Assembly (NCBI GenBank): GCA_005772855.1
Contig: SXIK01000008.1
Span: 11,344-75,343 of the forward strand
Direction of reading: 5' to 3'
From: Planctomycetia bacterium
GTDB lineage: Bacteria; Planctomycetota; UBA8108; SXIK01
Length of the DNA stretch: 64,000 nucleotides
The notes beneath the pieces were generated by a model, which was not told where the DNA came from, ran no database searches, and saw only the letters and a program-made list of their open reading frames with translations. The translations under genes and the position numbers were made by a program. Of the stretch, positions 31,657 through 60,460 are shown in pieces; within the stretch, counting starts at the first letter, position 1, and every line of letters begins with the position of its first letter.

Positions 31657-31723
31657 CTGTGCGAGTGGAAGCTCAAGCGCATCGGTCGTCCTGTTTCCTT
31701 CGGACCGATTCTGTGGTAAGACC

Positions 31724-33523: not shown

Positions 33524-33526
33524 GCG

Positions 33527-35260: not shown

Positions 35261-35272
35261 CCGCTCAGGACT

Positions 35273-43322: not shown

Positions 43323-43477
43323 TCCTCCGCATTGAAACTACAACGTGGTCTGGGCAGTGACCATGAGACGATCCGAAAACCCCGAGCCGGGACATGTTGG
43401 CGGAACTACGGCCAGGGGGGGTTGCTGCGGAGGGGAGTGCGCATCCTATCTTCATCGGAAGGAGTCGGTCTTTCGCC

Positions 43478-46201
43478 ATGGCCCCCAGGAAGTGTATTAC
43501 CGGCAGAATAGGTGACGCCTCGTTTCAGGAGGTCCTCTCCCTCATTCAATGGGGTACCGAAGAGGCTATATTTTCCGTCCACCGCGGAGATGCCGAGAAG
43601 ATCATTCACTTTGCCCCGGGGCGGGCCCTTGTCCTGGAGTTGCCATCTCCAGACCGTGGGCCAGCGAGGGATGCCTTGACAGGAAGCACGCTGTCGGAGG
43701 CTCTACTCGAGGCGGCCGCGTGGCAAGGCGCTCTCTTTGAATACCTTGAAGGTCCCGCGCCGGGCACGTTTGCAGAGGCCAAGGGGGTTATCACCATCGA
43801 CGAGGCAGCTCGCGAGCGGGTCGCCGGGCATACGGAGTCCGTGGCCCGTGGCTCGGTGCCCACGTTGCTTCCAGGTTCGGATAGCGATCCGCTCCGCAGG
43901 ATTGACGCCTTCGTCCCGCTCTTGCCGACAGCGCAGGCAAAAGGCCTCTTTCTCCGCGAACTGGCGGATTGCTACAAGGCCATCGGCTGCACAAGGCGGG
44001 CCGTCCTGTGTCTCCGGCAACTTGCCGCCCACCAGGTGGAGTGGGGTGCTCTCTTGAATGCCATCAAGACGCTCGAAGACGCGATCCGCATCTGTCCGAG
44101 TGACTTTCCTGCCGCCAGCGAACTGGTCCTGCTTGCGCAGCGCGTCAAGGATCCACGACTGGCGGAAAACACTGCAAAGTCAGTATGCACGGAGCTCCAC
44201 AAACACGGGTTGGGAGACGAGGCCGCCCGGCTCTGTCGACTCCTGCTCGAGAGTCCATCAGACCCCTTTCTCAAGTCCATTGTGGGCGAACTGCGGCTCG
44301 ACCGAGGCGACGTCAAGGGAGGCGTGAGGGAGCTCTGGTTCGCGGCCCAAGCCCATGAGGAGAGCAAGTCTCTCCTGGCCTCCGAGCGGGTCCTGAGGCG
44401 CATTCTGGCGGTGGACCCGACGCATGCCGGGGCTCGCAAGAAGTTACGCAGCCTTCGGAACCGACGTGTCCTGGTATCGCAGCTGAGACGCTGGGCGACA
44501 CTGCTCACCGCGCTCGTGATCATCGGGGGCTGGTATTCCTGGGATTTCAGGTCCGTCTCCGCGTCTGCGGCCCTGCGCCAATCGGGGGAGTCCATGGAGC
44601 CCCGAGAGGCAATCCAGCTTGTGAGAGACGCCGCCTTCCAGTATCCCGTCACTCTCCACGTAGAACGCATGGCGAGCCTGGAACGGGCTCTGGTCGCAAA
44701 ATCCTTTGAGGATGACCGGCAGCAACTCTCGCAGGCGCTCGCAAAGCTGGAGGACGGCCGACTTACTGAGGCCAGGGCGATCCTTGAGAAAGTCAACAAG
44801 AGTTCCCTATTCCAATTGATTCGTGACCGCTCCCACTCTGGCATGGACGAGATTCAGCATCGCCGCAAGACGGTGGAAACTCGAATCGGAGAGGCTTCAG
44901 AGCACCTGAAGGAGCACCGATACGACCGGGCATTCGAAGTTTACCGAGAGCTCCTGTCTGTCGGTGTGGATCCCGAGATCGTCTCGAGCTTACTGGTCCC
45001 GATTCGAGTCGAGACTTTTCCTCAGGGAGGACGGCTGCGCGTCGCTGATCGGGAGGTTGGCGCAACTCCGAATTGGGTGCTCATGCCTGCCGAGCGTGAG
45101 TGCAAGCTTGAGATCTTCATGCCGGGGTTTACCAGGACGGAGATCCTGGGACCAGTCTGGGATTCTGTGGAGCGAAAGGATCCAGTGCTGCGGGTCCCGC
45201 TTCTCCCCGAGAAGCTCGTGGAGGTTCCTACGGCTGGAGGGGTCTTTGCCTCCGGCATGATGCACAACCTGTCCGTTGTTGTGGTGCTTGGGGCCGACGG
45301 CGTCCTTCGGGCCCTGTCGGCAGCGAAGCCTGTGCGTTGGGAGCTGGTATTGGATTTGAATTGGGCCAGCTACAGCGCCCCGTGCATGGTTTCAAAAACC
45401 ATCGTGCTCGGGTCGACTCAGGGAAGGGCCTTCGGGTATTCCGCGCTGCTTGGAAATCTTCAGTGGGAATGTGCACTTGGGAAAAAAGGGGGCCTGGTGA
45501 CCGTCGGGCCGAGTCTTGGCGGACAGGTGTTGGCCACCGGATCTGAGGGGGCGATGCTGATCAATGCCGAGACGGGCCGAGTTACCCGGCAGCTCGACGT
45601 GCCCCTCGCGCGACGCTTTGCATTCCAGAGTATTGCAGGTGAGACCGCCGTCTTCCTGTTGGATGGTGGAGACTGGATCGGGGTAGACGTGCGGACGGGG
45701 AGACGAGTCTTCGAGCAGCGGAGACAGTTTCCGAGCGTTGAGTGGATCACCACGGCTGGCAACCACGTCGTCGTCGGTGGGCGTGATGGAAATGTCATGG
45801 TGATGTCGATGGATTCGCGAGTGGAACGTTGGCGAAAGTCGTTTGCGGAGCGATCCCTGGGCGCTTTCGCAATCGATTCAAAGCTTGTCGTCATTGGAAC
45901 GAGCGCGGGATTGCTTTTTGGGTTCCATCTGCAAACAGGCGATGTGGCGTGGCAGGCAGACCTTCGTGCTCCAATTACCGAGCTGACTGTTTGCCCGACG
46001 GGTGAATCGAGGACTCTTGTCGCGCACACCGATCGTCGGGGCGAACGGGTTTTTGTTTGTGTCAGCACGTGGGATGGCCGAGCTCTCTGGGAGGCGCCGT
46101 TGGGTCCCACAGGGGCTTCATGGGCTGCCATCAACAAGGGGTGTGTCGGCCTCAGCACGGCAGCGGGCGGTGTGTTGCTCCTGAGGTCGCCGGGACGATG
46201 A
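43478..46201 (+). CDS. DUF4388-like, TPR, TM, PEGA-like and PQQ-like beta-propeller protein
   Basis: ITGRIGDASFQEVLSLIQ; TPRs ending ILAVDPTHAGARKKL; TM WATLLTALVIIGGWYSW; VETFPQGGRLRV..VGATP; propeller blades GNLQWE, GRRVFE, ERWRK, GDVAWQ, GRALWE. AAGGAG upstream. Confidence 0.75.
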   Translation: MAPRKCITGRIGDASFQEVLSLIQWGTEEAIFSVHRGDAEKIIHFAPGRALVLELPSPDRGPARDALTGSTLSEALLEAAAWQGALFEYLEGPAPGTFAEAKGVITIDEAARERVAGHTESVARGSVPTLLPGSDSDPLRRIDAFVPLLPTAQAKGLFLRELADCYKAIGCTRRAVLCLRQLAAHQVEWGALLNAIKTLEDAIRICPSDFPAASELVLLAQRVKDPRLAENTAKSVCTELHKHGLGDEAARLCRLLLESPSDPFLKSIVGELRLDRGDVKGGVRELWFAAQAHEESKSLLASERVLRRILAVDPTHAGARKKLRSLRNRRVLVSQLRRWATLLTALVIIGGWYSWDFRSVSASAALRQSGESMEPREAIQLVRDAAFQYPVTLHVERMASLERALVAKSFEDDRQQLSQALAKLEDGRLTEARAILEKVNKSSLFQLIRDRSHSGMDEIQHRRKTVETRIGEASEHLKEHRYDRAFEVYRELLSVGVDPEIVSSLLVPIRVETFPQGGRLRVADREVGATPNWVLMPAERECKLEIFMPGFTRTEILGPVWDSVERKDPVLRVPLLPEKLVEVPTAGGVFASGMMHNLSVVVVLGADGVLRALSAAKPVRWELVLDLNWASYSAPCMVSKTIVLGSTQGRAFGYSALLGNLQWECALGKKGGLVTVGPSLGGQVLATGSEGAMLINAETGRVTRQLDVPLARRFAFQSIAGETAVFLLDGGDWIGVDVRTGRRVFEQRRQFPSVEWITTAGNHVVVGGRDGNVMVMSMDSRVERWRKSFAERSLGAFAIDSKLVVIGTSAGLLFGFHLQTGDVAWQADLRAPITELTVCPTGESRTLVAHTDRRGERVFVCVSTWDGRALWEAPLGPTGASWAAINKGCVGLSTAAGGVLLLRSPGR

Positions 46202-46242: not shown

Positions 46243-47241
46243 TCAGAACGCTGCGAAGGCTGCGTTGACGAACGTGCTTACGGGCGCCTGTTCCCGGAGA
46301 TCCTCAATCGTCTCGCGGCCGAGGACCAGGATGCGGACCAGCTCATCCCAGGCCTTGGGGTTGTTTACGATCTGGCCGAGCGTCCCCTGGCCCGTGTTGA
46401 CCTTGTGAACCACGTCGTGGAAGTCTGCAATGATGGCAGAGAGCTGGTTGGCAAGCTCCTTGTCGTTGATGAGGCGCGAGGCGATGCCACCGCCCTCTTT
46501 CACCTCGGTAATGATCTCGTTCAGTCTTTCCACGGTGGAGCGCAGGCTCTCCTTGGCCTTCTCGTCGCGTAGAAGGTAGGAAACGATCCCCTTGTCGTTC
46601 GTCACGTCCTCACGAAGCTTGGCAATTGTTTCGCTGGCATCCGAAATGAGCTTCTCGGCCTTGTCTCCCATGCCCTTGTCCCGGATCAGGCGCCCGAGCA
46701 AGCCTTCTCCGACGTTCGCCGAGCGGAAAGTTTCCTTGAACTCGTTGACCGCGCTGTTCATGTTCTCAAGGAGTTGCGTCACCTTGCCGTTCTCCTGAAC
46801 GAGCTGAGCGAGCTGCTTGAAGAGGTCGCCGGTGGCTTCTCCCACGAAGGCCGAGGTCGGGGCCTGGGGCTTGTCGTTCGGTGGGGCCGGCTGGATCTCC
46901 AGATAGCGGCCGCCGAGAGGCCCTGCGCTGTAGACCTTGAAGCTCGTTCCGCTGCCAATCCGCCCGAGAATTTCCCTTGGGACACTGCACTCAACCACGA
47001 TGGGCGTGGCCGGGGCTGTGTCCGGATCGTAGGAGATTCGGTCGACCTGTCCGACGCGAAGTCCATGAATTACCACGTCGTCTCCTTGCTCGAGCTGGTC
47101 GACAGAAGCAAAGCGTACGCTCAGGGCTTCCGCCTTGTTGAGAAATGGAATCGAGCTGATCTTGAGCGTCGCGACCCCCAGGATGCCGAGGCTCCCAAGG
47201 AACACAAGTCCCACGATCAGGTTTCTGGCGGCGTTGACCAT
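46243..47241 (-). CDS. mlaD: MCE/MlaD protein with long repeated helical C-terminus
   Basis: N-terminal TM NLIVGLVFL, LEQGDDVVIHGLRVGQV, GPLGGRYLEIQP; four GxxxxL[IL]xD-type helical repeats. Confidence 0.85.
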   Translation of the reverse strand: MVNAARNLIVGLVFLGSLGILGVATLKISSIPFLNKAEALSVRFASVDQLEQGDDVVIHGLRVGQVDRISYDPDTAPATPIVVECSVPREILGRIGSGTSFKVYSAGPLGGRYLEIQPAPPNDKPQAPTSAFVGEATGDLFKQLAQLVQENGKVTQLLENMNSAVNEFKETFRSANVGEGLLGRLIRDKGMGDKAEKLISDASETIAKLREDVTNDKGIVSYLLRDEKAKESLRSTVERLNEIITEVKEGGGIASRLINDKELANQLSAIIADFHDVVHKVNTGQGTLGQIVNNPKAWDELVRILVLGRETIEDLREQAPVSTFVNAAFAAF

Positions 47242-47261: not shown

Positions 47262-48074
47262 TCAGTGCTTGTTCTGGGCCAGGAGTCCATCCGTGATCGG
47301 GCCATGCGGGGAGCCCGTGATGAACTGCTGGACCACCGGATGGTTTGTACTCTTGATCTCCTCGGGTGTCCCGGAGGCAATGATTCGGCCCTCGTAGAGC
47401 ATGGCGATTCGATGACCGACTCTGTAAGCGCTATCCATGTCGTGAGTGACGACGACTTGTGAGGCCTTGAGGGTCTTGCCTGTGTTGGCGATGACCTCGT
47501 CGATGGTGCGGGCGATCACGGGGTCCAGGCCGCTGGTCGGCTCGTCGTAAAGAATGATTCTTGGGCCGAGCACAATCGCCCTGGCGAGTGCTGCGCGTTT
47601 CTTCATGCCGCCCGAAATTTGCCCCGGATACTTGCCGGCCGCTGCTTCCATCTCAACGAGCTTCAGTTTTTCGGCCACGAGTTGACGCCTCTCGGAGGCG
47701 CTCAGGTCGGCCCGGTGTTCGAGGAGGGGCAGCTCCACGTTTTCCTCAATCGTCATCCAATTCAGAAGTGCCGAAGACTGAAAAAGGTAGCCCATGCGGA
47801 GGCGAGCCTGATCGCGCTCCTTGCGGGACAGCTTGGCCATGTCCCGGCCGAACACAAGGACCTGACCTCGGTCCGGTGCCTCAAGTCCGACGACGTGCTT
47901 GATCGTCACGCTCTTGCCCGAGCCGCTCCTGCCGATGACGACGAGAGTCTCGCTCTCGAAGAGCTTGAGATCGACTCCACGGAGCACTTTTTGCGTCCCA
48001 AACGCCTTCTCAACGCCGAGCAGCTCGACGAGGGGTTCCAGGGTCTGCTGGCTTGCGGGCGTTTCGCTCACCAC
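47262..48074 (-). CDS. mlaF: MlaF-type ABC ATPase
   Basis: GRSGSGKS, GYLFQSSALLNWMT, ISGGMKKRAALARA, LYDEPTSGLDP, VVTHD, HPVVQQFI. Confidence 0.92.
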   Translation of the reverse strand: MVSETPASQQTLEPLVELLGVEKAFGTQKVLRGVDLKLFESETLVVIGRSGSGKSVTIKHVVGLEAPDRGQVLVFGRDMAKLSRKERDQARLRMGYLFQSSALLNWMTIEENVELPLLEHRADLSASERRQLVAEKLKLVEMEAAAGKYPGQISGGMKKRAALARAIVLGPRIILYDEPTSGLDPVIARTIDEVIANTGKTLKASQVVVTHDMDSAYRVGHRIAMLYEGRIIASGTPEEIKSTNHPVVQQFITGSPHGPITDGLLAQNKH

Positions 48075-48856
48075 TCAATCCGGAAGAAAATGAAGGTCAC
48101 GTAGTAGCCCAGGATAATGATCAGCAGGTACGAGATGACGACGGCCCGTCTCGTGGCGAGGCCCACACCAATGGCTCCGCCACTTGTGCGCAGACCCTGG
48201 GAACAACCCACGACCGCGATCACAATGCCAAAGATGAACGCCTTGAGGAGGCCTGTGTACATGTCCTTGTTGGTCAGAGCATTGAGTGCTTCCGTCTTGA
48301 ATCTGAGATAGCTCACGCCGTACTGGCTCGAGCTGACGACTGCCGCCCCAAGAATTCCCACGAGGCTTGTGTAAACGGTGAGGACCGGCGTCATGATCGC
48401 CATCGCGATCAGTCGTGGCAGCACGAGGAACCTGGCGGGCTCAATGGCCATGATCTCGAGGGCGTCGATCTCCTCCGAAACCTTCATCGTGCCCAGTTCG
48501 GCCGCCATGGCGGATCCGACACTGGCCGCAAGTATGAGCGCTGTCATGAACGGGCCCATCTCGCGAGTCATGGAGATTGTGACGATCTGCCCGATCAGGG
48601 CCTCCTGGCCCAACTTCGCCAGGGTGATTCCTCCGTTCAAGGCCAGAATCATTCCTGTGAATACGCTCACGACCATGACCACGGGGATCGTCGTGATCCC
48701 ACAGATAAACAACTGACGAAAAAGTGCTGCTCGGTAGTGCCATCGGATCAAAGTGCCAACGAGCAGGCTCGTCCTGGCAAGAAGCGCGAGACCGAAGCCT
48801 GCGCCCTCGGAGGCCCTCGAGATGAACTCGCCTGTCTGTGTGATCCAGCGAATCAT
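48068..48856 (-). CDS. mlaE: MlaE-type ABC permease
   Basis: VFTGMILAL, REMGPFMTALILAASVGSAMAAELGTMKVSEEIDALEIM, FLVLPRL, VGLATRRAVV. Confidence 0.94.
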   Translation of the reverse strand: MIRWITQTGEFISRASEGAGFGLALLARTSLLVGTLIRWHYRAALFRQLFICGITTIPVVMVVSVFTGMILALNGGITLAKLGQEALIGQIVTISMTREMGPFMTALILAASVGSAMAAELGTMKVSEEIDALEIMAIEPARFLVLPRLIAMAIMTPVLTVYTSLVGILGAAVVSSSQYGVSYLRFKTEALNALTNKDMYTGLLKAFIFGIVIAVVGCSQGLRTSGGAIGVGLATRRAVVISYLLIIILGYYVTFIFFRIEW

Positions 48857-48863
48857 GGGGCGA

Positions 48864-50324
48864 TCATCTCCAGGGTGAGACCCAGGGAAGGTAGAAGAGT
48901 CTTAGCGACGCCGAGCCGCCACGTTTCCCCACCTCGAACAGACCGCCCAACACGCTGAAGAGCGCATCGCCTTGCGGGGGCTCGACGCGATACATCAAGA
49001 CTCCGTAGAGGAACTCCCACCCGGAGATTTCGGGTTTCCACCGGTATCTGAAAATGTTGAACCACCTGGAGTAGAGCCGGTCGTAGTCGTCTCTGCGGAG
49101 CCAGAGAGGGGAAAAGAGATCAAACGAGGCGATTGCGCCGACGTGCCTGTTTCGAAGGAGAGGCCACAGGGTCCACTCGCTTTCGATCTCGAGCGTATCT
49201 TTGTCAATGTAATGGAAATGCCACAGGAGGGGAAGGAGCCAGAACCGGGTAGTCTCCTCGAGGCCGTCCGTGGTCCACTCATAGCGTTCGAAAGGCCAGA
49301 GGAAGAAGTGCCGATAAGTTCGGCGAATGACACCGCCGAGATCCGTACCGTGGCTGGTTCGTTTCACCCCAAAAAATGGCCACAGATCCGTCTGCCCGTC
49401 CGTGAATCGGTAGGGGATGAGGAACCCGAGGTAGGTCTTGCGGTCGTACTTCCGGTCGTAATGCGTCTGGAAAAACGGCCAGAGGTAGGTGTAGGTCTCC
49501 GTGCGCTGATTCGTCCTTGCGCCATAGAAGGGCAGCGAGAAGAAGACCTCCGTCGGATCGATGTGCGCCTGATCCTTGCGGCGGATGTAAAAGGGCCATA
49601 GCAAGAACCCCCTGTCGTGGCGAAGCTTTCCATCTTCGCCGATCGATCGATAACGTCCGTAGAAAGGCCAGAGGCGCGAGCCGGATTCTTCCCCCTGCCA
49701 CGCATTGGTTCCCCAGACACGATTGTAGAATGGCCAAACAATATGAAGCGAGTGGCGTTCGCGGTCTCGGGCATGCCACCACAGCGGGAAGAGCCAGAAG
49801 GTGATCTCGTCCTGCGCGAGGAGGCCTTTGAGTTTGCCAGCAAGGGGAAAAAATGCGAAGTAGGAGCCCTCGTCGGGATCGGAGCCGCCGAAGAAAAAAG
49901 GGAGCAAGAACCAGTCACTGTCTTCCCCCGATTGTGGCTGCGGATAACTACGGTATTGAAATACTGGGAGTACCGAGTACCGGTGGCCATCGAGGCCCCA
50001 GTGGAAGTCCAGCAATGGGCTCAGGAACCTCACGTGATGGCCTGTGGCGCGGAAATGCGAGCCCGAGCCCGGTGTCAGCATGCGGGCTTGCGTCTTGGTC
50101 GTGGACGCGCTTTCGAGATCCTCGTAGCTTCCGAGTGGACGGAAGAAGTACTCGTGCCCGTGCTCGGAGCCGACACTGGAGGGAGTGTCGTAGACCTCGA
50201 AGACGGGTGGCACGCCCCAGGTGCCTTCAGGGGTACGGCAGCCGGAGAGAGCGAGAGTCAGCAGGGCAGCCAGGCAGGTGATTACCCGGCGTGCGGGAGT
50301 CGTCCCTGGCGACTTGTAGATCAC
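48864..50324 (-). CDS. Lipoprotein with about 18 aromatic xx[WLF]P[FL]x repeats; function unknown
   Basis: Lipobox LALSGC; repeats IVWPFY, RLWPFY, LLWPFY, YLWPFF, DLWPFF, FLWPFE, TLWPLL and others. GTGA overlap with the upstream giant gene; 7-nt gap to mlaE. Confidence 0.8.
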   Translation of the reverse strand: MIYKSPGTTPARRVITCLAALLTLALSGCRTPEGTWGVPPVFEVYDTPSSVGSEHGHEYFFRPLGSYEDLESASTTKTQARMLTPGSGSHFRATGHHVRFLSPLLDFHWGLDGHRYSVLPVFQYRSYPQPQSGEDSDWFLLPFFFGGSDPDEGSYFAFFPLAGKLKGLLAQDEITFWLFPLWWHARDRERHSLHIVWPFYNRVWGTNAWQGEESGSRLWPFYGRYRSIGEDGKLRHDRGFLLWPFYIRRKDQAHIDPTEVFFSLPFYGARTNQRTETYTYLWPFFQTHYDRKYDRKTYLGFLIPYRFTDGQTDLWPFFGVKRTSHGTDLGGVIRRTYRHFFLWPFERYEWTTDGLEETTRFWLLPLLWHFHYIDKDTLEIESEWTLWPLLRNRHVGAIASFDLFSPLWLRRDDYDRLYSRWFNIFRYRWKPEISGWEFLYGVLMYRVEPPQGDALFSVLGGLFEVGKRGGSASLRLFYLPWVSPWR

Positions 50325-53300
50325 TCCAGCGTGACCTTCGGGAAGAAGTTGGGAATGATGAAGCGCCAGACGGGGCTATTTTTCTGATTGCGTGGCAGGA
50401 GGTGACAGGGATTGATGCTCAATGTCTTGGTTGCGCCCTGGCCTCGGTCGTCGTCCGTGAGAAGCAAGCTCAGCCCAAAGGTGTAGCCGCCGGGAGGCGG
50501 TGTTCGCTCGAAGGTCGACTGAAAGGACGCCCACGGCAGGCCCACCTCATAAATCGCTCCCGAGTTGTCGTCTTTCTTCTTTACCGAAAAAAGTCCTGCA
50601 GGTTTTCGCTCCTCATCCTCGTCCTCTTCCTCGTCATCACCGTCTGGTGAGTCATCGTCCTTCTTGGGCTTGTCGAGTTTGTTGCGCTTGGGTACTGTGA
50701 GCGCGAGTGTCATGAGCTGGTCGTTTCCGTGCTGCCAGTACCCACCGTCGTTGGTCGGGTCGAGGCCAATGATCAGGCAGTCCCCTTTCCAGTTCTCGGC
50801 ATCCCGGTCATAGGGGTAGATGTTGTCGTCGGAAACGTCCAGCGCGAAGTAGAAGAACTTCTCATCCCAGCCAGTGTAGAGTATGGCAGAGAGGTCCTCG
50901 TCTCCTTCCCAGTCGCGCAGCTGCTCCGGCACTGGAATCGTCCCGACGTACTTGGGGCCTGAAAGCGTGACTCGTGTCGAGACGTCCCATGGGTCGCTCA
51001 GGTCGCCGTCAATGGCCGGCGGTGTCGAAAAATGGCGAGCTGAGAGTGTGGGCACGCTCTCCTTCATCCATTCTTCCTTGAGGCCGTCGAGCATGTAACT
51101 GAGGAGAAACCGCTTCTCGGCTCCACGTTCGTTGAGAATCTCCTCCGAGAGTAATGCGCGGTTGAGTATGTTCATCGCCGAGGGGAGGTCATTGCCTCGA
51201 AAGTACTCCAGCGCGAGGCGGGTGGTGTTCTCCACGGCCCCGGGATTCGACAGGAAGAGCTTCAGTGCTCGCGTGCCGAAGCTTGAGCCCGACCCGGGGA
51301 GGGCCTCGAGAGTGATGGGGGAAGATTGGGTGCTCAGGAGCCCTCCGTCGGCGCCATCCTGGGGAGGCTGCTGGGGGGTGAAAGGGATCTTTCGTGCAAG
51401 CTTTGTCGAATCTGCTGACTCGAACGCGCAGTCGCCGCCGTCGGTGAGAATGACGAGCTTGCCCTGGAGCACGGCAAAGGAGCAGTCTTTCTTCTCAGCC
51501 AGGAATGTTCCTACCATGGACGCCTGCGCGGAGCGAGGAGCCCCGGTCGACTTGTCGAAAGTTGCTATGGAGTTGGGAGCATCGAGAAAGAAGATACTAT
51601 CACCGCCTGCTTGAATCCTGTCGGGAATGGCGCCGAATCCACCTCCGAGTTGTGCCTCGGCCGGCCAGAGAGGCTCGACGAGCTGTTTCTCGCCGGCGAC
51701 TCCCTCCCGCACTTGAAGGGCGACCAGCTTCCAGGTCCCTTGCCCATAGACTACATAGAATTTATTCCGATCCCGGGTGATTGCGACAGATGAGGCTTCG
51801 GGCTTGAACTTCTCAAAACTCCACAGCTCTCGGCCGCTGGCGAGGTCGATCATGACCAGGATTGGCCACCGATTGGCCTTGCTTTGCATGGAAAGCAGGC
51901 ATTCGTCGGGTGCCTCCGCGAAGTGGAAAGCGTCCTCGATCGTGCCGGTCCGTTTGTATTCCCAGCGCACACGTTTTTCCACCAAGTCGAGGAGCTTGAT
52001 CGTGCCGCCGTTCGTGAGCCCAACGCGCCCGCCTTCGAGGCTCAAGGCCACGCGGTAGACCCCGTCCTTGAGCGAGGCAAGCGCCCTGGAGAGCTCCTCA
52101 TCCTCAATTTCCTCTCCGCTCGCTGCCGCGTGAATGCGAAGGCCGAACGGCTGAGTGATCACGTAGAGTCGGTCTCCCAGAACAATGGGCTGTTCCACGG
52201 CAACGTTGTAGCCCTTCCCAACTCTTGCTTCCCAGACGAGTTCGCCCTGCAGGCTCAGGCGAAGTACCCGAGAGCGGGTTGTCGCAAAAATGCCCTGGGC
52301 GGTAATTTGAACGCCGCGTAGCTTTTCGCGCAGGCGAACTCGTAATGGCTCGGAAGGGTCGCCAGGCTCCTCGTTGCCCCCTATGGGTAGGTGCCACCTG
52401 ACCGTGCCCCTGACCGGTTCCACCGCAAAGAGGTTCTGTTCGTCATTCAGGACGAGCAAGGTCTCTTCCTTGGCGCTACTCGTGACAGAAGGCATGTACC
52501 GGCCACTGAAGGCCAATCGCCCAACTCTTGGGAGATGAAACCCACGGCCGAGGCCAGGGTCGTTGAACCGGAAGCCGGGGATCATCTCCAGGTTGATCTT
52601 CCACACAGGCAAGCCGCTCTCCACCTCGCGCATCTCGATCACGTCCTCTGACTGCGTGAGGAAACAATTCTTCGAACGTTCCGGTGGTGTGCCACGCGGG
52701 GCGAGAAAGCTGCGCTTGATGGCCTGCAAGTCCGCCGGAGACCGCCAGGACATTCGGATTGGGAATCGGAGCGGGCGTACCTGCTCCATCGCAGCCTCGG
52801 CAAGGCTGGAATCGCCCAGAAGCGGACGGATATAAGCTTCGACGGCCTCGCCGGGTCGTGCGCCTTCCACGCCTTCGACAGGGCTTGCCCCGTGGTGCTC
52901 GAGGAGGTCCAGGTAACGGTCTCGAGCCGCCTTGGCTTGCCCTGACTGGCGCAGCAGGTTGGCAGCCAGGAGCTTCACCTTCACAAGATCCTGACCTTCG
53001 GGGAAGTCACGGAGGTACCCGTCGAGCGCGTTGATGGCCTGCTCGTAGCCCTGAGCGTCACGGTAGAGCCGGGCGAGGTCCAGGTAGGCCTCGGCGGCGC
53101 TCGGAGTGAAGGGGAACAGGCGAAGGAGATCGCGATAAGCACCAGGTGTCTTGATCTTGCTCCGCGCCCGACGCAGCGCCTCGCTAGCGATCGCATCGAC
53201 CTTCTGGAAAACGTTGGAGGTTTCACCTGAGCTCTTGCGCAGCTCCAGGATCTTGTCGCGGATGTAGTCGACGCTCTCCACGGCCAGGACGCCGTCGGGC

Positions 53301-55990
53301 GAGTACGTCGTCTGTGGGTTCTCGCTCAGAAGCGCCTCATGGAGGGTCTCGGCGGCCCCCGTTGCGTCGCCAAGCTGATCGAGCTTTGCCGCCAACTCGA
53401 TCGCGGCCGTGACTCTCCGGCTGGGCGTACGTTCGAGTCGCACCCGGTAGCGAAGGAGATCGGCGACTTGCTTCTCATCGTTCCAGAGGCGAGATACCTC
53501 CTGCGCTAGCTCCGCGACATCAAGGTGCAAGTGGTCCAGCGGAGAATTGGGTTGCGGGCTTGGTGGGGCACTGTCCACCCATGTCTTGAGGGCCTCAAGG
53601 CCCCCTGGGACGTCCCCAACGCGCAACTCGAGCTTCGCGCGTTCGAGGAGCGCCTCGGTGCGGTCGGCTGGGAGGCCAGCGACCCTCTTTCGATAGAGGT
53701 CCATGCCGTTATATAAGTAGTTGCCCGACGCGTTCGAGACAGCCAGAATTCGGGTGGCACCGCCCACGAGGAGCAAGTTGCCGCCGCCACGAGCCAGCTC
53801 CCACGAAGTCCGCCACAGCGTATGGCCGTCCTCGGGCGAGAGCGCCAAGAGGGCTTCACGAGTCGGGAAAAGGAGCTGCCCATTTTCGAGGAACGGACGG
53901 CCCGAGGCCTGGAGAGGGCGCGAGCTCTGCGAGGCAGTGGCGAGTGAGTCGACCCTCCAGAGTGTCTGGCCGCGCTGGGGCCCCGAGTGAGCCACCGCGG
54001 AGGCGCCGCTTCCCGTGAGGAAACATGCCCGGGCGTCGGCTCCGATGAGCGCGGTCCGTGCGTCTCGAGGTGCCGTCCAGAGGGTCTCGCCCGAATGCGG
54101 ATCCAGGGCAAAGAGGAGCGCAGAATCCTGTGGCGCGACGATGAGCTGACCTTCGACGAGGAGGAGCGGATTGGGATGCCAGCGGTTCTCCACGCGGACC
54201 GACTCGCGGCGACCGCGGGCGCTCAGGGTCGCCGTCGAGCGGACCCATCGGATCGCTCCATCGGCTCTGTCGACCTTCGCGAGGCATCCGATGTTGGTGA
54301 GATGGAAGATGGCGTCATCCGTGACGATGGGCAGCGATGCCGCGCCTCCGAGGCCAAGATAGTTCCCTCCCTGAGACGAGCCCAAGAAAATCTGCCACTC
54401 AAGTTCACCATCGGACCGCAAGCTCAAGAGGTGCTGAAGAGATTCCTGGCCGATTCTCACACTGACACTCACCACGATCGATTCGCCACACTCGGCGGCA
54501 GGCGAGAGCGAGTAGAGAGTGCGTGGCCGCGAACCAGGCAACCCCTTCTTTGCTACGAGCTTCCCGGACGGAGCTCTTTTCTTTTTCTTTTCAGGCTTGT
54601 GGTCCTCGTCGGGGGGGGCCAGGTCTGGACCTTCTGGCGCCTCGGTTTTCTCCCCTGACTCGGCATCGGGTTTTTCGTCCGGATTCTTGTCAGTGGGCGT
54701 AGATTCCTCGTTCTCCGTTTCCAGAGGGTCCTCCAAGGAAAAAGCGGGCGCTGGCCCATCGATGATTCGCATCGTCCTGGTGGATCGGTCGTAGACGCAG
54801 GTTTTTTGCCAGAGGCTTCTGCCGTCCGCCGAATCGAGCGCTGCGAGCGTACGGCCTCTGGTATGGAAAACCCTGGAGGCCGTAAGCAATGGCATCCGCA
54901 CGCTCGAGAGATCCTCGTCCTCTCCCGAGATGTCCACTGACCAGAGCTCACGTGACGTTTCAGCGTCGTAGGCCTGGAGCCGATCTGCGTGCTCAAGCAG
55001 GATCACCCCGCCGCGGGACGAGGGGAAATAGGGCGTTGGCGGCTCACGTTCGCTCGAGCCTCGCGACCTCTCCTCAACGAACGCCCGGATCTGCGCACCA
55101 GGCACCCGGTGTTCCCAGACGATTTCGCCAAGTCGGTAGGGCGGCGCGTCGGCGCTCGCGCCCGCAGGCGCTCGAGCCTCGAAGGACCCTTCAGCCCGGG
55201 GAGCGATCCCTTCGCGTCGAGATGCCGGCATGTCCAGCACGGCTGCTGCGATGAGGCCATCGAGGAGACGAAGCAGCTCCGGCGGCAGGCTCTCCGGTTT
55301 TACAGTCCTTCGCAGCTGATCGATCGCACGGATTTCGTCGCGAGCCCGAATCGACTCCCCTGTCGAAGCCAGGGCCTGCGCCCGGATCACGCGCGCGCGC
55401 AGCGCGTCCTCGGCCCCTGGGGCAAGGTCCAGTAGCGCCGCGCTCGAGCGCAGAACAGCCTGCCAGTCGCCGACCTCAAAGGATTGGTCGACCTCTTCCT
55501 TGAGTCCTTCCAAATAAACCTCGCTGAAGGGTAGGTCACGCAGGAATACGCTGCGCAGCCGTCGATGCGCTTCGGGCTCATCCCGCAGCCGGGACTGTCT
55601 CCAGAGGTCCGAGAGAAGGGGGTTCACTCGTGTCTTGAACCGGGCGAGCTCTTCCGGAGGCAGGTTCATGACAAATTCGCGAAAAACTTCGCGAATTCCC
55701 CGAGATAGCTCGCCACCGATCTCGAGTACCGAGCTCATTTGCGGGTCGACGATCAGGGTAGTGAATCGTGTTAGCCCTTCGAGCAGCGCCCTGGAGTCTC
55801 CACGCTCGCGGGCTTTCTCGATTTGGCGCCACAAGAGATTGTGCTCAGTATGGGTGGGGAAGAAGACTCCACCCGGGGACTTGTCGCTGGCGCATTCGCA
55901 CTGCCTTGGATTGTGAAGCAGCCAAACAAAGGCCAGGGAAAGCCCCAATCCTGGCAAACTCCGCATCCGCAGGTTCAAGGTCCTCAACAT
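50321..55990 (-). CDS. ~1,890-aa exported protein: TPR/BamD-like helices, multiple PQQ-like propellers, C-terminal CBM9/DOMON-like domain
   Basis: Hydrophobic N-terminal segment; many GxxxW blades (GRSLWQ, GELEWQ, GAIRWV, GETLWT, GHTLWR, GTVRWH, GELVWE, GRELWS); YRDLLRLFPFTPSAAEAYLDLA; C-terminal PPAIDGDLSDPW..WDEKFFYFALDVSDD..YEVGLPW. Start at ATG 55990 (alternatives 55966, 56119). Confidence 0.82.
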   Translation of the reverse strand: MLRTLNLRMRSLPGLGLSLAFVWLLHNPRQCECASDKSPGGVFFPTHTEHNLLWRQIEKARERGDSRALLEGLTRFTTLIVDPQMSSVLEIGGELSRGIREVFREFVMNLPPEELARFKTRVNPLLSDLWRQSRLRDEPEAHRRLRSVFLRDLPFSEVYLEGLKEEVDQSFEVGDWQAVLRSSAALLDLAPGAEDALRARVIRAQALASTGESIRARDEIRAIDQLRRTVKPESLPPELLRLLDGLIAAAVLDMPASRREGIAPRAEGSFEARAPAGASADAPPYRLGEIVWEHRVPGAQIRAFVEERSRGSSEREPPTPYFPSSRGGVILLEHADRLQAYDAETSRELWSVDISGEDEDLSSVRMPLLTASRVFHTRGRTLAALDSADGRSLWQKTCVYDRSTRTMRIIDGPAPAFSLEDPLETENEESTPTDKNPDEKPDAESGEKTEAPEGPDLAPPDEDHKPEKKKKRAPSGKLVAKKGLPGSRPRTLYSLSPAAECGESIVVSVSVRIGQESLQHLLSLRSDGELEWQIFLGSSQGGNYLGLGGAASLPIVTDDAIFHLTNIGCLAKVDRADGAIRWVRSTATLSARGRRESVRVENRWHPNPLLLVEGQLIVAPQDSALLFALDPHSGETLWTAPRDARTALIGADARACFLTGSGASAVAHSGPQRGQTLWRVDSLATASQSSRPLQASGRPFLENGQLLFPTREALLALSPEDGHTLWRTSWELARGGGNLLLVGGATRILAVSNASGNYLYNGMDLYRKRVAGLPADRTEALLERAKLELRVGDVPGGLEALKTWVDSAPPSPQPNSPLDHLHLDVAELAQEVSRLWNDEKQVADLLRYRVRLERTPSRRVTAAIELAAKLDQLGDATGAAETLHEALLSENPQTTYSPDGVLAVESVDYIRDKILELRKSSGETSNVFQKVDAIASEALRRARSKIKTPGAYRDLLRLFPFTPSAAEAYLDLARLYRDAQGYEQAINALDGYLRDFPEGQDLVKVKLLAANLLRQSGQAKAARDRYLDLLEHHGASPVEGVEGARPGEAVEAYIRPLLGDSSLAEAAMEQVRPLRFPIRMSWRSPADLQAIKRSFLAPRGTPPERSKNCFLTQSEDVIEMREVESGLPVWKINLEMIPGFRFNDPGLGRGFHLPRVGRLAFSGRYMPSVTSSAKEETLLVLNDEQNLFAVEPVRGTVRWHLPIGGNEEPGDPSEPLRVRLREKLRGVQITAQGIFATTRSRVLRLSLQGELVWEARVGKGYNVAVEQPIVLGDRLYVITQPFGLRIHAAASGEEIEDEELSRALASLKDGVYRVALSLEGGRVGLTNGGTIKLLDLVEKRVRWEYKRTGTIEDAFHFAEAPDECLLSMQSKANRWPILVMIDLASGRELWSFEKFKPEASSVAITRDRNKFYVVYGQGTWKLVALQVREGVAGEKQLVEPLWPAEAQLGGGFGAIPDRIQAGGDSIFFLDAPNSIATFDKSTGAPRSAQASMVGTFLAEKKDCSFAVLQGKLVILTDGGDCAFESADSTKLARKIPFTPQQPPQDGADGGLLSTQSSPITLEALPGSGSSFGTRALKLFLSNPGAVENTTRLALEYFRGNDLPSAMNILNRALLSEEILNERGAEKRFLLSYMLDGLKEEWMKESVPTLSARHFSTPPAIDGDLSDPWDVSTRVTLSGPKYVGTIPVPEQLRDWEGDEDLSAILYTGWDEKFFYFALDVSDDNIYPYDRDAENWKGDCLIIGLDPTNDGGYWQHGNDQLMTLALTVPKRNKLDKPKKDDDSPDGDDEEEDEDEERKPAGLFSVKKKDDNSGAIYEVGLPWASFQSTFERTPPPGGYTFGLSLLLTDDDRGQGATKTLSINPCHLLPRNQKNSPVWRFIIPNFFPKVTLE

Positions 55991-55997
55991 AGGCCGG

Positions 55998-56003
55998 ATT
56001 GTA
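55998..56003 (-). promoter_or_regulatory. -10 box (TACAAT) 7 nt before ATG 55990; probable leaderless promoter of the MCE operon
   Basis: The minus strand reads TACAAT-CCGGCCT-ATG, with no SD. Confidence 0.5.
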
Positions 56004-56166
56004 GGAGGCGTGGGATGGGCCGTCAAGGAAGCCGACCTCCCGCCGCCCTCGAGGCTGAATGGCCGGGCAGCAAGGGCAGGCGGTCCGAGTTTCTGATCTT
56101 GGGCAAGCCCGCTGAGCAAGTCCGTGCACCAGCGCTGCCAGCACCACTGGTTTCAGCCAGGCTTTG

Positions 56167-56287: not shown

Positions 56288-58882
56288 GTGAGGATTATTG
56301 TCCAGTGCCTCGTCCTGCTTTGTTGCCTCGCTGGCGTGGCTCGTGGACAGGAACCCGGGAAAGACTTGCCCAAGCCTGCTGCTCCGCCTCGGTTGCGATT
56401 CGACCCGTCAAGCTATCCCGATTCGGTCTCGAACAACTTCACGTTCACCGAGCGAGAAATGGCTGGCTACTTCTCTGGCAGTGTCGTCTGGACCTACGAG
56501 ATTCAGGGAACCCAGGCCCATCTGTATGCTGACCGGGTCATGATCCTTGCGAAGTCGCCGAGGAAGGAACATGGCTCGGGGGGGGAGCCGCGGGAGAACG
56601 ACGCGAAGGGGCTGGATCTTCGCGAGTGGACCGACTGGACACTTTACGCCGAGAATGCTCGACTGGAGCTGCCTGCAAGGCACACCTCGATCGAGGCTGA
56701 ATCGCTCCTTTACGACCGCTCAACGGGCCGTGCTGTCGCGCGAGGCGTTCGCTTGCACACCATCGTTGGCTTTGCCAAGGCCGTGCCAACCATCGCGACC
56801 GCGAAAAACTGGTGGAGAGGCCTCGAGGCGCTCGATCATGCGGCGGAAGATGACGAGGGCGTGGCCCGAACTCCCCTGAGCATTCATGCCAGGGTGCTTC
56901 GCATGACGGACTTCGAGGAATTCGACGGCGAAGATATCGAGTTTTCCACCTGCGAGTTTGGCGTGCCCCACATGGCCTTCCACTCTGAACGGGTCACGGT
57001 CACACCCACCGAGAATGAGGAGTCGCGGAAGACATCCGGGGCTCCTGTTGGGGTGAACCCACGGGGGGCACCAACGCCAGATTCCAGCCAGCCTGCTCTG
57101 GCGCAACGCGACTTCCTCATTGATCCGGAACATACCTGGCTCGAGCTCGAGGGCCATTCCATCTTGCCTATGCCCCTTGCCTACTGGAACACACGCTGGG
57201 ATGCGCAACTTCCGATCCGGCACTTCGACTTTGGCCACTCGGGCCAATTCGGGTATTTCGGGGAAGTCAACTGGAACGTGAATTACTTCCTGAATCTCTT
57301 GCCCACGACCCGGTTCCTTCCGGTCAAGATCGAGGACTCGAAGTTGGGTCTCGAGACTGACTACTTCCAGAAGCGAGGAGTTGGGATTGGCCCCAACGCC
57401 GAGTACGGCCGCAATCCCGAGCGCTGGGATCCCTGGCAACTCCAGCTACACCAGTGGCAATACTACGGCGAGGCCGAATATTACTTCATCAACGACAGGG
57501 GCAAGAAAGATCGCTCGACTCGCCAGGACGTTCCCCGTGAGAATCGGTACTGGGGCCACGCGTGGCATCGCCAGTCGGTGCCGTATCTGGGCCTGTTCGA
57601 CCTGGAGTACTCCAAGATCTCCGACAGCGCCTTCCTGAGCGAATACTTCGAGCGTATTTCCAAGGAGGAAAAAGAGCAGGAGACGCTAATCTACTGGCGG
57701 CGCAATATTCGTGACAACCTCGCCTTGACGGGACTTTACTCGCAACGCATCAATGACTTTCAGACTCAGGTTGAGCGGGCTCCGGAAGGGAAGATACTGC
57801 TCATGGAGCAGCCGATCTTCGAGACGGGCCTTTACACGGATTTGAATCTCCAGGCGGCCTACCTCCACCGGCTCGAGAACGACGCCTTGGGGGCAGCCCC
57901 CCGGGGCTTCTCGCGAGCCGATATCTTCAACGAATGGGCCTACCCGGTACACTGGACGCCGTATCTTGAGGCACGGCCCTTTGCGCTTCTGAGATACACG
58001 GACTACCGCGAGGTCCTGGACGCCTCCGAGAGCTCCGAGGATCGCGCGTCCTTCGGGGCGGGAGTTGCCGTGAGCCAGCACTGGTCGAGGATTTACCAAT
58101 TCACGCCAGATTCCTTCGCCGCCTGGTTGCTAGGCGTCCCTCGCTTGAAGCATGTCATCTCCCCGAAAGTGACCTATTTGAACCTGTTCGCGAACGACCT
58201 CGATCCCGAGGATACGATTCCCGTCGATGCCGTCGATACGGTCGACCTTGAGGAGTCAATTGCCTTCTCGCTCCGCAACGAAATCTTCGGCAGGAGTTTG
58301 CTCGCCAAGAAGCGGCCGCCCAGGGTGCGCCCCTACCTCCAGGATCGGGAGGGCGAGCTCGAGACGCTGCCCCATGAGTCCCGCCGACTGCTCGACAGCG
58401 AGGTGAGCTTTGCCCTGTTTCCCCGGGCCCAGCGTGACAATGGAGGCGACCGAAGCTCGCTTCTGATCCTTGACAACACCGCTTCCTTGATCACCCACGT
58501 GGAAGCGAGGGCCTGGTTCGAGCTGGATCCGAACCGAGACTTTCGGGGGGAGCGAGTCGATGCCTCCCTCACATACGACATCGTGCCGAAAACGCTCTCG
58601 GTGACCGTTGGTGACCGTTTTACACGCAAGCGCTCGAACGTGGGCTACACGTTCCTGAACTGGGCGGTGAGCGACAAATGGGTGGTGGATGCCTACTATT
58701 CCCGCGATTTTGAGGCGAGGAGGGATGTTGAGTACAACTTCTCACTGAGCAGGATCTTTCACCGGATGGCCCTGAACCTTGAGTATTCCCAGGATGTCGG
58801 GGAAGATCGCAATACCACCGTGTACGTGAACATCATGCCCGTGGAGATGCTGCGCGTCAGCCGGCACGGGCACAGACGCTGA
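56288..58882 (+). CDS. lptD: LPS-assembly outer-membrane beta-barrel, LptD/OstA-like
   Basis: Signal peptide; N-terminal jellyroll-like AESLLYDRSTG and FSTCEFGVPH; GHSGQFG; YSKISDSAFLSEYF; amphipathic C-terminal strands ending TTVYVNIMP. Confidence 0.72.
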   Translation: MRIIVQCLVLLCCLAGVARGQEPGKDLPKPAAPPRLRFDPSSYPDSVSNNFTFTEREMAGYFSGSVVWTYEIQGTQAHLYADRVMILAKSPRKEHGSGGEPRENDAKGLDLREWTDWTLYAENARLELPARHTSIEAESLLYDRSTGRAVARGVRLHTIVGFAKAVPTIATAKNWWRGLEALDHAAEDDEGVARTPLSIHARVLRMTDFEEFDGEDIEFSTCEFGVPHMAFHSERVTVTPTENEESRKTSGAPVGVNPRGAPTPDSSQPALAQRDFLIDPEHTWLELEGHSILPMPLAYWNTRWDAQLPIRHFDFGHSGQFGYFGEVNWNVNYFLNLLPTTRFLPVKIEDSKLGLETDYFQKRGVGIGPNAEYGRNPERWDPWQLQLHQWQYYGEAEYYFINDRGKKDRSTRQDVPRENRYWGHAWHRQSVPYLGLFDLEYSKISDSAFLSEYFERISKEEKEQETLIYWRRNIRDNLALTGLYSQRINDFQTQVERAPEGKILLMEQPIFETGLYTDLNLQAAYLHRLENDALGAAPRGFSRADIFNEWAYPVHWTPYLEARPFALLRYTDYREVLDASESSEDRASFGAGVAVSQHWSRIYQFTPDSFAAWLLGVPRLKHVISPKVTYLNLFANDLDPEDTIPVDAVDTVDLEESIAFSLRNEIFGRSLLAKKRPPRVRPYLQDREGELETLPHESRRLLDSEVSFALFPRAQRDNGGDRSSLLILDNTASLITHVEARAWFELDPNRDFRGERVDASLTYDIVPKTLSVTVGDRFTRKRSNVGYTFLNWAVSDKWVVDAYYSRDFEARRDVEYNFSLSRIFHRMALNLEYSQDVGEDRNTTVYVNIMPVEMLRVSRHGHRR

Positions 58883-58895
58883 TGCCCCCCAAGCC

Positions 58896-59393
58896 ATGTC
58901 CAAGGTCCAATCTCCCAGAATCGCCCTTTACCCTGGCAGCTTTGACCCCGTCACCCTGGGTCACCTGGACGTCATTGGTCGCGCTGCTCGATTGTTCGAT
59001 CGAATTGTTGTCGGGGTGATCGACAACCCGTCAAAATCCGCGCTCTTCACGGCGGAGGAGCGCAGGGCAATGATCTGCGGTGAGCTCGAGGGCCTGGGCG
59101 GCGTCACTGTCAAGACGTTCACGGGACTTGCTGTCGATGCGGCGGCGCAGGTGGGGGCCCAGTGGATCGTGCGTGGGCTTCGGTCGGCTGCCGACGCCCT
59201 GTATGAGCTGCCGATGGCTCACTCGAACCACCATTGCGGCAAGGTGGAGATCGAGACGATCTTTGTGGCAGCCAGTCCGGAAGTTTCCTTTATCTCCTCG
59301 AGCCTCGTGCGCGAGATTGCTGCACGAGGGGGCCGGCTTGGTGCTTTCGTGACGTCGGCGGTTGAGGACAAGCTGCGTAAGAAGTTGACCTGA
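58896..59393 (+). CDS. coaD: Phosphopantetheine adenylyltransferase
   Basis: YPGSFDPVTLGHLDVI, IVRGLRS, FISSSLVREIA. Confidence 0.97.
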   Translation: MSKVQSPRIALYPGSFDPVTLGHLDVIGRAARLFDRIVVGVIDNPSKSALFTAEERRAMICGELEGLGGVTVKTFTGLAVDAAAQVGAQWIVRGLRSAADALYELPMAHSNHHCGKVEIETIFVAASPEVSFISSSLVREIAARGGRLGAFVTSAVEDKLRKKLT

Positions 59394-59400
59394 GCGAGCA

Positions 59401-59459
59401 CTTGAGGTGGTCCTCCTCTGCCCATTCGGAATGTCTCACGTGTGGGCGCGCGAGGTATA
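59401..59459 (+). repeat. 59-bp direct repeat, copy 1; includes the -10 region of udg
   Basis: CTTGAGGTGGTCCTCCTCTGCCCATTCGGAATGTCTCACGTGTGGGCGCGCGAGGTATA; 56/59 identical to 60461-60519. Confidence 0.92.
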
Positions 59460-59466
59460 ATCCCGC

Positions 59467-60264: not shown

Positions 60265-60460
60265 TTTATTCCGCAAGCGGGCAGTGATGAGACCTTTCGC
60301 AGGCTGCAAGAGTTTGCGGCTGCTCGCGCCAGAAGCGCCCGACGCCCATCAGGTGCCGGGGAGGGAGAGACCGCGTGTCGTTGTTGCCTCCACCCTCGCT
60401 CCGCTCGGAGGCGAGCCGACGTGGGGGAGGGTCCGCCCACCAGCAGAAACGAGTAGCAGA

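Follow-up and report, generated by a model that had tools for sequence, protein, structure and literature searches.

A 64,000-nucleotide stretch of contig SXIK01000008.1 from a Planctomycetia bacterium (hereafter the window) carries a gene, here designated X, that encodes a 486-amino-acid (aa) lipoprotein built of hairpin repeats. X heads a set of four genes, the other three of which encode the permease MlaE, an MlaF-type ABC ATPase and the needle-type MCE protein MlaD. The protein is best explained as having a known type of role, that of an accessory lipoprotein of an MCE transporter, carried out by a fold without a solved relative. The four genes, all co-directional in the window, were as follows.

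48864..50324, minus strand: X, the 486-aa hairpin-repeat lipoprotein gene, an open reading frame (ORF) with a GTG start
48068..48856, minus strand: mlaE permease, 262 aa (Pfam PF02405, 2.6e-69; TIGR00056 above cutoff)
47262..48074, minus strand: MlaF-type ABC ATPase, 270 aa (PF00005, 8.5e-31; MlaF model NF008809, 1.1e-46, below cutoff)
46243..47241, minus strand: needle-type MCE protein MlaD, 332 aa (PF02470, 9.2e-11; TIGR00996; AlphaFold2 (AF2) model)

These genes were closely packed: 7 nt separated the stop of X from the start of mlaE, mlaE and mlaF overlapped by 7 nt, and a gap of 20 nt lay between mlaF and mlaD. This operon context is the strongest clue to the function of X. Within X itself, the following features were recognised.

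50238..50324, minus strand: signal peptide and lipobox, residues 1–29 (...LALSG-C29), with a basic n-region and a hydrophobic h-region
49092..50219, minus strand: hairpin array of ~18 beta-hairpins, residues 36–411, with tips [F/W]-x-L-[W/F]-P-[F/L]-[Y/F]-G and short polar or charged loops on the opposite edge
Motifs in the first part of X: FFRPL 60–64, FLSPL 100–104, VLPVF 118–122, LLPFF 140–144, FFPLA 158–162, LFPLW 178–182
Motifs in the middle part: VWPFY 196–200, LWPFY 218–222 and 242–246, SLPFY 263–267, LWPFF 281–285 and 314–318, LIPY 302–305
Motifs in the last part: LWPFE 342–346, LLPLL 363–367, LWPLL 386–390, FSPLW 404–408, YLPW 478–481
49059..49091, minus strand: amphipathic helix DDYDRLYSRWF, residues 412–422, the sole helix of the mature protein (AF2)
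48882..49052, minus strand: C-terminal six-strand meander, residues 425–481, with tips LYGV, LGGL and YLPW (AF2)

The N-terminus of X reads VIYKSPGTTPARRVITCLAALLTLALSG-C29, with LALSGC at residues 24–29 and Arg directly after the Cys. Judged from its sequence, the segment 1–29 is a plausible lipoprotein signal peptide, and C29 was invariant among the 30 closest homologues. An earlier interpretation drawn from the letters alone (the sequence-only reading) had reported the lipobox, a list of 18 proline motifs, a richness in W, F and Y and the lack of a long transmembrane helix. All four points were borne out: the 18 motifs were present in the order given, W, F and Y made up 19.5% of the residues, and no long hydrophobic helix was found in X beyond the signal peptide. 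X has 17–19 hydrophobic-Pro motifs at intervals of ~20 aa; the spacing was mostly 17–24 aa (range 12–28), with two longer gaps. The strict pattern [FLWIVYM][FLWIVYM]P[FLWIVYM] occurred 14 times in mature X compared with 1.73 ± 1.25 times (maximum 9) in 20,000 shuffles, and a family position-specific matrix detected 15 strong repeats compared with 0.55 (maximum 4) in shuffled sequences. The number of strong repeats was narrowly kept across 220 proteins with identities down to ~25% (median 15, 5–95% range 13–18).

Fold of X and its hydrophobic edge

The AF2 model of X, computed on an alignment of 86 homologues, had a mean predicted local distance difference test (pLDDT) score of 91.4 and a predicted template modelling score (pTM) of 0.81, with 395 residues at a pLDDT of at least 90. 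Residues 71–94 formed an insertion of low model confidence inside the hairpin array. The model comprised 41 strands of 3–9 residues each and a single helix (412–422). Each Phi-W-P-Phi motif corresponded to a turn of 3–4 residues linking two strands, and the loops on the opposite side were short and polar (RE, QR, DG, GEDGK, KDTLE and similar).

The topology was tested by mean-field direct-coupling analysis of 318 sequences (effective number, Meff, 289) and later of 385 sequences (Meff 318), after 80 metagenome loci had been added. The strongest couplings were cross-strand pairs spanning both kinds of loop (G223-F240, H339-E346, W138-G146, G319-F340, E173-R186 and D237-K250). When the couplings between positions P−k and P+m were pooled over 15 repeats, an antiparallel ridge of 0.2–0.36 was obtained (standard error, SE, ~0.04), which stood 5–8 SE above background. 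All blocks of adjacent hairpins likewise coupled above background, with no period-2 breaks. Because the AF2 turns and the coupling ridge across the proline agree independently, the hairpin topology assumed in the sequence-only reading, in which each repeat was a beta-hairpin with a hydrophobic tip, is upheld. Every repeat of X is thus a true beta-hairpin tipped by the proline motif, and the hairpins join as one continuous meander.

The C-terminal meander coupled with the last regular hairpin (S405-L476 and R411-A472), and L104-I424, with a coupling of 1.46 (rank 6 overall; 1.32 with the enlarged alignment), linked the C-terminal part to an early hairpin. L104-I424 was the only signal of ring closure clearly above noise. 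Long-range couplings other than these three were at noise level, and enlarging the alignment from Meff 289 to 318 gave no further resolution. Many of the long-range couplings connect corresponding tip positions in separate repeats and probably arise as artefacts of composition or of the alignment. The pTM value, the C-terminal couplings and the narrowly kept repeat number speak for a compact or closed form, whereas the noise-level and probably artefactual couplings call for caution. A closed ring of 41 strands at 4.8 Å each would be ~60–65 Å across, an estimate obtained by arithmetic and not by measurement. The helix 412–422 follows directly on a tip and is itself followed at once by a strand beginning at the tip edge; in the model, it should lie along the hydrophobic rim.

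A Foldseek search of the PDB with the X model returned weak generic matches only (OspA, teneurin/Rhs YD shells, Tom40, ApoB100 and propellers), with query-normalised template modelling (TM) scores of 0.18 or less. The top score, only 0.18, belonged to the beta-belt of ApoB100, and the highest match probabilities to OspA, a single-layer sheet. OspA, teneurin/TcB-TcC and ApoB100 resemble X in having a long regular antiparallel hairpin meander, and YD repeats share its period of ~20 residues. However, the query-normalised TM scores of OspA, YD/Rhs and ApoB100 were 0.08–0.18, no sequence or Pfam relation to X was found, and these proteins have neither the proline-tip edge nor the mla context. The YD motif and CW_binding (GW...WYY) repeat profiles gave no Pfam match in 86 members of the X family. 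A beta-propeller was rejected, given the low TM scores of the propeller matches (0.18 at most) and the absence of period-2 coupling breaks between hairpins. The fold of X is without a solved relative.

The distribution of polarity was profiled over ~1460 repeats from 86 family proteins. The repeat consensus was [F/W](−4) x L(−2) [W/F](−1) P(0, 94%) [F/L](+1) [Y/F](+2) G(+3). Charged residues accounted for 0–6% at positions −2 to +2, 13–18% at −4 and −3, and 38–49% at offsets of at least 5 on either side, and no period-2 hydrophobic alternation was seen along the strands in this profile. For X itself, over the seven positions −4 to +2, the Wimley–White interfacial scale gave a sum of about −3.7 kcal/mol per repeat, which is a very strong drive into the membrane interface. 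The data fit a single-layer sheet that is polar on both faces and has one continuous, aromatic greasy edge, with ~7 hydrophobic tip residues per hairpin and a depth of ~4 residues plus the turn, estimated at ~12–15 Å. Cys29 is followed after ~6 residues by a strand of three residues leading into a tip; the model would accordingly place the lipid anchor on the same hydrophobic edge.

A sheet that is polar on both faces and has a single greasy edge speaks against both a groove along the strands and a classical transmembrane barrel. The lipid-conducting groove, which was the main idea of the sequence-only reading, was rejected on the basis of the pooled couplings and the charge profile. Lpt/AsmA/TamB proteins, which also act in envelope lipid transport, form a beta-taco (beta-jellyroll) in which a period of ~20 residues would fit a kinked pair of half-strands. 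In X, however, this kinked-strand pairing (P_i−k with P_i+1+m) was not found, the pooled couplings remaining within about ±0.12 (no score reached 0.12 in absolute value), the strand faces were 38–49% charged past ~4 residues from the tip and formed no hydrophobic inner face, and no such fold was among the top 50 Foldseek matches. The second proposal of that reading, a membrane-embedded sheet, held in part: the tip edge is hydrophobic enough to enter a membrane, but the rest of the sheet is not. A classical transmembrane barrel was set aside on account of the short strands (3–9 residues), the lack of alternation and the charge on both faces.

Distribution of the X family and its linkage to MlaEFD

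A word-indexed search found 656 homologues of X, and an exhaustive HMMER search yielded 576 clusters (50% identity), of which 263 scored below 1e-10. All of these clusters were labelled ‘hypothetical protein’ and had no precomputed Pfam domain. X itself had no match in Pfam (E ≤ 1) or NCBIfam, 86 diverse members gave 0 Pfam matches at E ≤ 0.01, the family profile had no match among PDB sequences, and our literature search found no description of the family. The lack of a named family, already suspected from the sequence, thus held in Pfam, NCBIfam and PDB. Homology to PqiC, MlaA, YD/Rhs or choline-binding repeats was considered and rejected, as there were no profile matches.

The N-termini of the family were all signal peptides. 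A lipobox was present in the planctomycete/verrucomicrobial clade and in several others, with Arg, Ala, Thr or Ser after the Cys; Asp followed the Cys in only one of the 105 homologues with a detectable lipobox. The C-terminus of the family was aromatic (...RLLYLPWxxW). In longer members, namely P0139 (850 aa), P0217 (883 aa), P0166, P0229 and P0247, the hairpin array formed the C-terminal half (e.g., residues 467–846), behind an N-terminal extension.

To assess the genomic context, 80 loci were taken from one-genome-per-species collections, and their six-frame ORFs were scanned with hidden Markov models built from the window and from loci of distant homologues; 74 loci had enough flanking DNA. 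MlaE was found in 73 of these 74 loci, immediately adjacent to the X homologue in 72, and MlaE, MlaF and MlaD occurred together in 62. Metagenome loci gave a similar picture (80 fetched; MlaE in 61 of the 63 assessable). The sequencing runs that contained the locus were all DNA metagenomes. The 74 genome loci came from about nine phyla and included Planctomycetota, Verrucomicrobiota/Kiritimatiellia, Lentisphaerota, Desulfuromonadales and other Thermodesulfobacteriota, Nitrospirota, Methylomirabilota, Dadabacteria, Abyssobacteria and Leptospirales. Among the distant homologues, gene order differed: X-MlaE-MlaF-MlaD in Verrucomicrobiota and Planctomycetota, MlaF-X-MlaE-MlaD in Abyssobacteria and MlaE-MlaF-MlaD-X in Syntrophaceae. 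The varying order speaks for a functional rather than an accidental linkage. All-against-all clustering of the neighbouring ORFs revealed no other widely shared gene beside X, and the core module therefore consists of four genes. These findings suggested that X is probably the fourth subunit of the module X-MlaE-MlaF-MlaD and works with MlaEFD. In spirit, the lipid-handling role proposed from the sequence was thus retained, as the X gene lies inside an MlaE-MlaF-MlaD operon and the linkage is kept across phyla.

The MlaD of the module is of the needle type. In the AF2 model, the window MlaD comprised a transmembrane helix (residues 2–28), an MCE domain (37–117) and five helical modules of ~30 residues (140–331), and its best full-length fold matches were the needle-forming subunits Mce1A–F of M. 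smegmatis. The helical part consisted of five modules of ~30–35 residues, each opened by G-(E)-G-T-L-G-x-L-x-x-D-x-x-L-Y, and these motifs coincided with helix breaks. In four other loci, the partner MlaD matched PF28544 (Helical_needle), although in three of them below the strongest confidence class. The end of the protein carried a further conserved element.

46246..46287, minus strand: conserved hydrophobic C-terminal tail of MlaD, APVSTFVNAAFAAF-COOH, shared with partner MlaDs

Most of the 55 partner MlaD sequences ended in ...D(L/F)RE(Q/T)(A/S)P(I/V)(S/T)TF..F(S/G)AF-COOH, and a Desulfuromonadales variant read ...GP(L/V)SALG.V.GT(L/F)F. By analogy with PA3213/PqiB (PMC13631591), this tail is a candidate for the segment that docks onto X or onto the outer membrane.

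In the window, X is translationally coupled to the gene upstream of it, as its start codon overlaps the stop of that gene (GTGA).

50321..56119, minus strand: 1932-aa protein with BamB-like PQQ_2 propellers (7.7e-34), TPR repeats and a C-terminal CBM9

The TPR repeats of this protein had a weak YfiO/BamD-like match. Neighbour-ORF clustering placed homologues of ~1850 aa upstream of X in only eight loci, all of them planctomycete, and the protein is a lineage-specific addition outside the core module; it may act, in this lineage, as a scaffold of the X system in the periplasm or at the outer membrane. A second protein with TPR and PQQ_2/BamB-like propeller repeats (935 aa; 43394–46201, plus strand) flanks the operon and is convergent on mlaD. 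In 18 loci, mostly of Desulfuromonadales (including L024:5520–6539), a gene for a ~335-aa TPR protein lay just upstream of the X homologue. Considered alongside the giant TPR/propeller protein of planctomycetes, this is a hint that a TPR-type accessory recurs. In a metagenome-assembled genome of Verrucomicrobiota (L005:1344–4061), the gene for a 905-aa MMPL/RND-family transporter lay just upstream of X-MlaE-MlaF-MlaD in the same orientation, which may be a clue to the lipid cargo. A link to hopanoids, prompted by this single neighbour and a published study (PMC12324291), was discarded, since that study concerns the MlaA/MlaC-like proteins HpnS/HpnM and not the X family.

Farther from X, two ORFs (56288–58882, plus strand, 864 aa; 59290–60309, minus strand, 339 aa) were without a Pfam match at E ≤ 1e-4. 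A 165-aa gene at 58896–59393 (plus strand), ~8.5 kb from X, belonged to the same Pfam family as a 167-aa cytidylyltransferase-like gene directly after a Thermodesulfobacterium homologue of X (L001, 8001–9995); this is probably a coincidence. Comparison with a 50%-identical planctomycete locus (L007) showed that synteny reaches past the operon, with a sigma-54 activator, an FG-GAP/UnbV_ASPIC protein and an S49 peptidase near both (31619–36868 in the window).

Proposed role of X and alternative explanations

MlaEFD is the widespread core, regarded as ancestral, of the system, whereas MlaA and MlaC are largely proteobacterial and missing from most phyla (Grasekamp et al., PMC10665443). The same study found long forms of MlaD to be common, with a C-terminal outer-membrane barrel ‘completely absent’ in the PVC and FCB groups, and suggested that partner proteins might still await identification. 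For MCE systems, the outer-membrane partners known are porin-like barrels, MlaA-like lipoproteins and PqiC-like lipoproteins (Giacometti et al., PMC13631591). In the PA3211–PA3214 system described there, an octameric lipoprotein ring (48 Å high, outer diameter 95 Å, pore 30–40 Å) surrounds the tip of a rod that is 170 Å long and ~35 Å thick and is made by a 312-aa MCE protein, whose last seven residues bind a hydrophobic groove on the side of the ring facing the outer membrane.

Against this background, we consider it reasonably probable (roughly 0.6) that X is the outer-membrane-side dock of the MlaD needle, analogous to PqiC/PA3214 but of unrelated fold, and that it inserts its Trp-Pro-Phe edge into one leaflet. 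In this explanation, X is an exported, N-terminally lipidated, all-beta protein in which ~41 short strands (~20 hairpins) form one antiparallel meander. The Phi-W-P-Phi tips all lie along one long edge and create a hydrophobic aromatic stripe 12–15 Å deep, and the other half is highly charged on both faces. X would then rest on the outer membrane's periplasmic leaflet, where its lipid anchor and the immersed aromatic tip edge would hold it in place, and would take up the far end of the needle formed by the MlaD hexamer, probably via the hydrophobic C-terminal tail of MlaD. The lipid tunnel of the needle might thereby be sealed to the membrane, and X would fulfil the function of the PqiC/PA3214 rings or of MlaA in Proteobacteria. 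The repeat, the topology of the hairpins, the profile of polarity, the absence of known relatives and the linkage within the operon are results of the analysis; beyond these, we infer the location of X at the outer rather than the inner membrane, the insertion of its tips, its contact with MlaD and the identity and direction of the cargo.

The closest functional parallel is PqiC/PA3214 (E. coli PqiC, P. aeruginosa PA3214; PF03886). Like X, these lipoproteins are co-operonic with an MCE protein that has a C-terminal helical needle, and the PA3211–14 operon also contains a permease and an ATPase, which gives the same four-part logic as in the X module. The window MlaD (332 aa) and the PA3211–14 MCE protein (312 aa) are similar in length, and MlaD, too, closes with a conserved hydrophobic peptide. 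This pairing of a lipoprotein with a needle-type MCE gene is a functional parallel to PqiC-like systems and not evidence of homology: PF03886 matched neither X (E ≤ 1) nor any of the 86 members (E ≤ 0.01). The PqiC-like protomer is an alpha/beta protein of ~190–210 aa that forms an octamer, whereas X is a single 486-aa all-beta hairpin array with one short helix, and the aromatic edge of X looks membrane-entering, whereas PA3214 is proposed not to embed. MlaA (VacJ, PF04333), which acts with OmpC/F, is likewise an outer-membrane lipoprotein partner of MlaFED and occupies the outer membrane's inner leaflet (PMC10665443, PMC13631591). However, MlaA is alpha-helical, acts together with a short MlaD and with MlaC as soluble shuttle, and is largely confined to Proteobacteria, whereas X is all-beta and occurs with a needle-type MlaD. 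X and the 86 members had no Pfam match to PF04333, and the AF2 model did not show the helical ring fold of MlaA.

Several observations weigh against a docking role at the outer membrane. Some clades of the X family had an ordinary type-I signal peptide in place of a lipobox, so that lipidation is common but not universal. The Asp+2 rule of lipoprotein sorting was established for E. coli and may not hold in the host of X. How X is shaped overall and whether its tips are exposed is deduced from secondary structure, the sequence profile and weak coevolution. The Thermodesulfobacterium homologues (L001/L002) were not mla-linked, and one further locus (L077) contained an X homologue without MlaE. 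On one Planctomycetota contig (L006/L022), X was followed by MlaE and then by an ArsP-type permease and a two-component system, with no MlaF or MlaD within 6 kb; the module may be split or degenerate there.

A more specific form of the docking proposal is a monomeric ‘beta-crown’, in which the ~41 strands would close as a single-layer ring, ~60–65 Å across and 25–30 Å high, sitting in one outer-membrane leaflet and encircling the needle tip of ~35 Å. The crown would be held by ~20 Trp-Pro-Phe hairpin tips, the amphipathic helix lying in the plane of the membrane and the lipid anchor. We regard this geometry as tentative and somewhat doubtful.

Among the alternatives to a dock at the outer membrane, X could instead act at the inner-membrane end or in the periplasm, as a collar of the MCE ring, an assembly scaffold of MlaFED or a regulator. 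Operon linkage shows a partnership with MlaEFD and not its place, X is the first gene and abuts mlaE, and lipoprotein sorting in these phyla may follow other rules. Nevertheless, the inner-membrane end is already complete in the solved MlaFEDB and Mce1 structures, it is the outer end that has no partner in these phyla (PMC10665443), and Asp after the Cys occurred once in 105 lipobox homologues, all of which make this placement unlikely.

Slightly less credible still is the idea that X is a ~40-stranded beta-barrel integral to the outer membrane and assembled by BAM, which would give the MlaD needle a pore or lateral gate for delivering or extracting lipids across that membrane. The ~41 antiparallel strands, the aromatic C-terminus of the family and the coupling L104-I424 between the C-terminal part and an early hairpin would all suit a barrel, and non-lipidated members must reach the membrane unaided. 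Porin-like barrels are, moreover, known MCE partners (PMC13631591, PMC10665443). In the C-terminal outer-membrane barrel of long MlaD of the Veillonella parvula type (PMC10665443) and in the six-stranded tip barrel of Mce1, beta-structure joins the MCE needle to the outer layer, as proposed for X. The latter two barrels, however, lie inside the MCE protein itself, with 10 strands per subunit in V. parvula MlaD and one per subunit at the Mce1 tip, whereas X is a separate polypeptide of ~41 short strands with a half-bilayer hydrophobic band. The thickness of this band, approximately half a bilayer, follows from the charge found on both faces beyond ~4 residues from the tip. Strands in a classical outer-membrane barrel have at least ~9 residues, an alternating lipid-facing side and a band of ~24 Å; those of X have just 3–9 residues and no alternating face, and no large barrel was a good Foldseek match (query-normalised TM scores of 0.18 at most).

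A role as a lipid-binding belt or carrier, analogous to MlaC and not to PqiC, appeared improbable. Here, the aromatic edge would wrap lipids or other cargo (e.g., hopanoids) and hand them to MlaFED. The edge is indeed long and continuous, the beta-belt of ApoB100 had the top query-normalised TM score, albeit 0.18, and an MMPL/RND transporter lies directly upstream at one verrucomicrobial locus. However, X and many homologues are lipid-anchored and hence would not shuttle, the partner MlaD needle spans the periplasm and makes a shuttle unnecessary, and the greasy surface is an edge rather than a face or pocket.

Finally, an incidental association with mla, with X acting in adhesion, cell-wall binding or envelope structure, could draw on the unlinked Thermodesulfobacterium homologues and on the aromatic hairpin repeats of twenty residues that also occur in choline-binding and YD/Rhs proteins, but is very improbable in view of the 97–99% adjacency over about nine phyla with variable gene order and the lack of any Pfam match to choline-binding or YD repeat families in 86 members.

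Significance for MlaEFD systems outside Proteobacteria

Phospholipid traffic from one membrane to the other is still an open problem in bacteria other than Proteobacteria. In the PVC group, the long MlaD carries no barrel for the outer membrane, which leaves the outer end of the system unaccounted for (PMC10665443). The X family is a concrete candidate for this missing outer end: it is widespread and unnamed, stands almost invariably beside a needle-type MlaEFD and has a membrane-seeking edge. A name for several hundred clusters of ‘hypothetical protein’ in Pfam and in genome annotation would follow, and the fold, which is without a solved relative, would add an architecture of peripheral membrane anchoring. 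If true, the beta-crown would add to the outer-membrane partners of MCE lipid transporters a third class without structural precedent, and would supply the outer end still missing from the ‘ancestral’ MlaEFD bridge in the PVC group, Desulfobacterota, Nitrospirota and other phyla.

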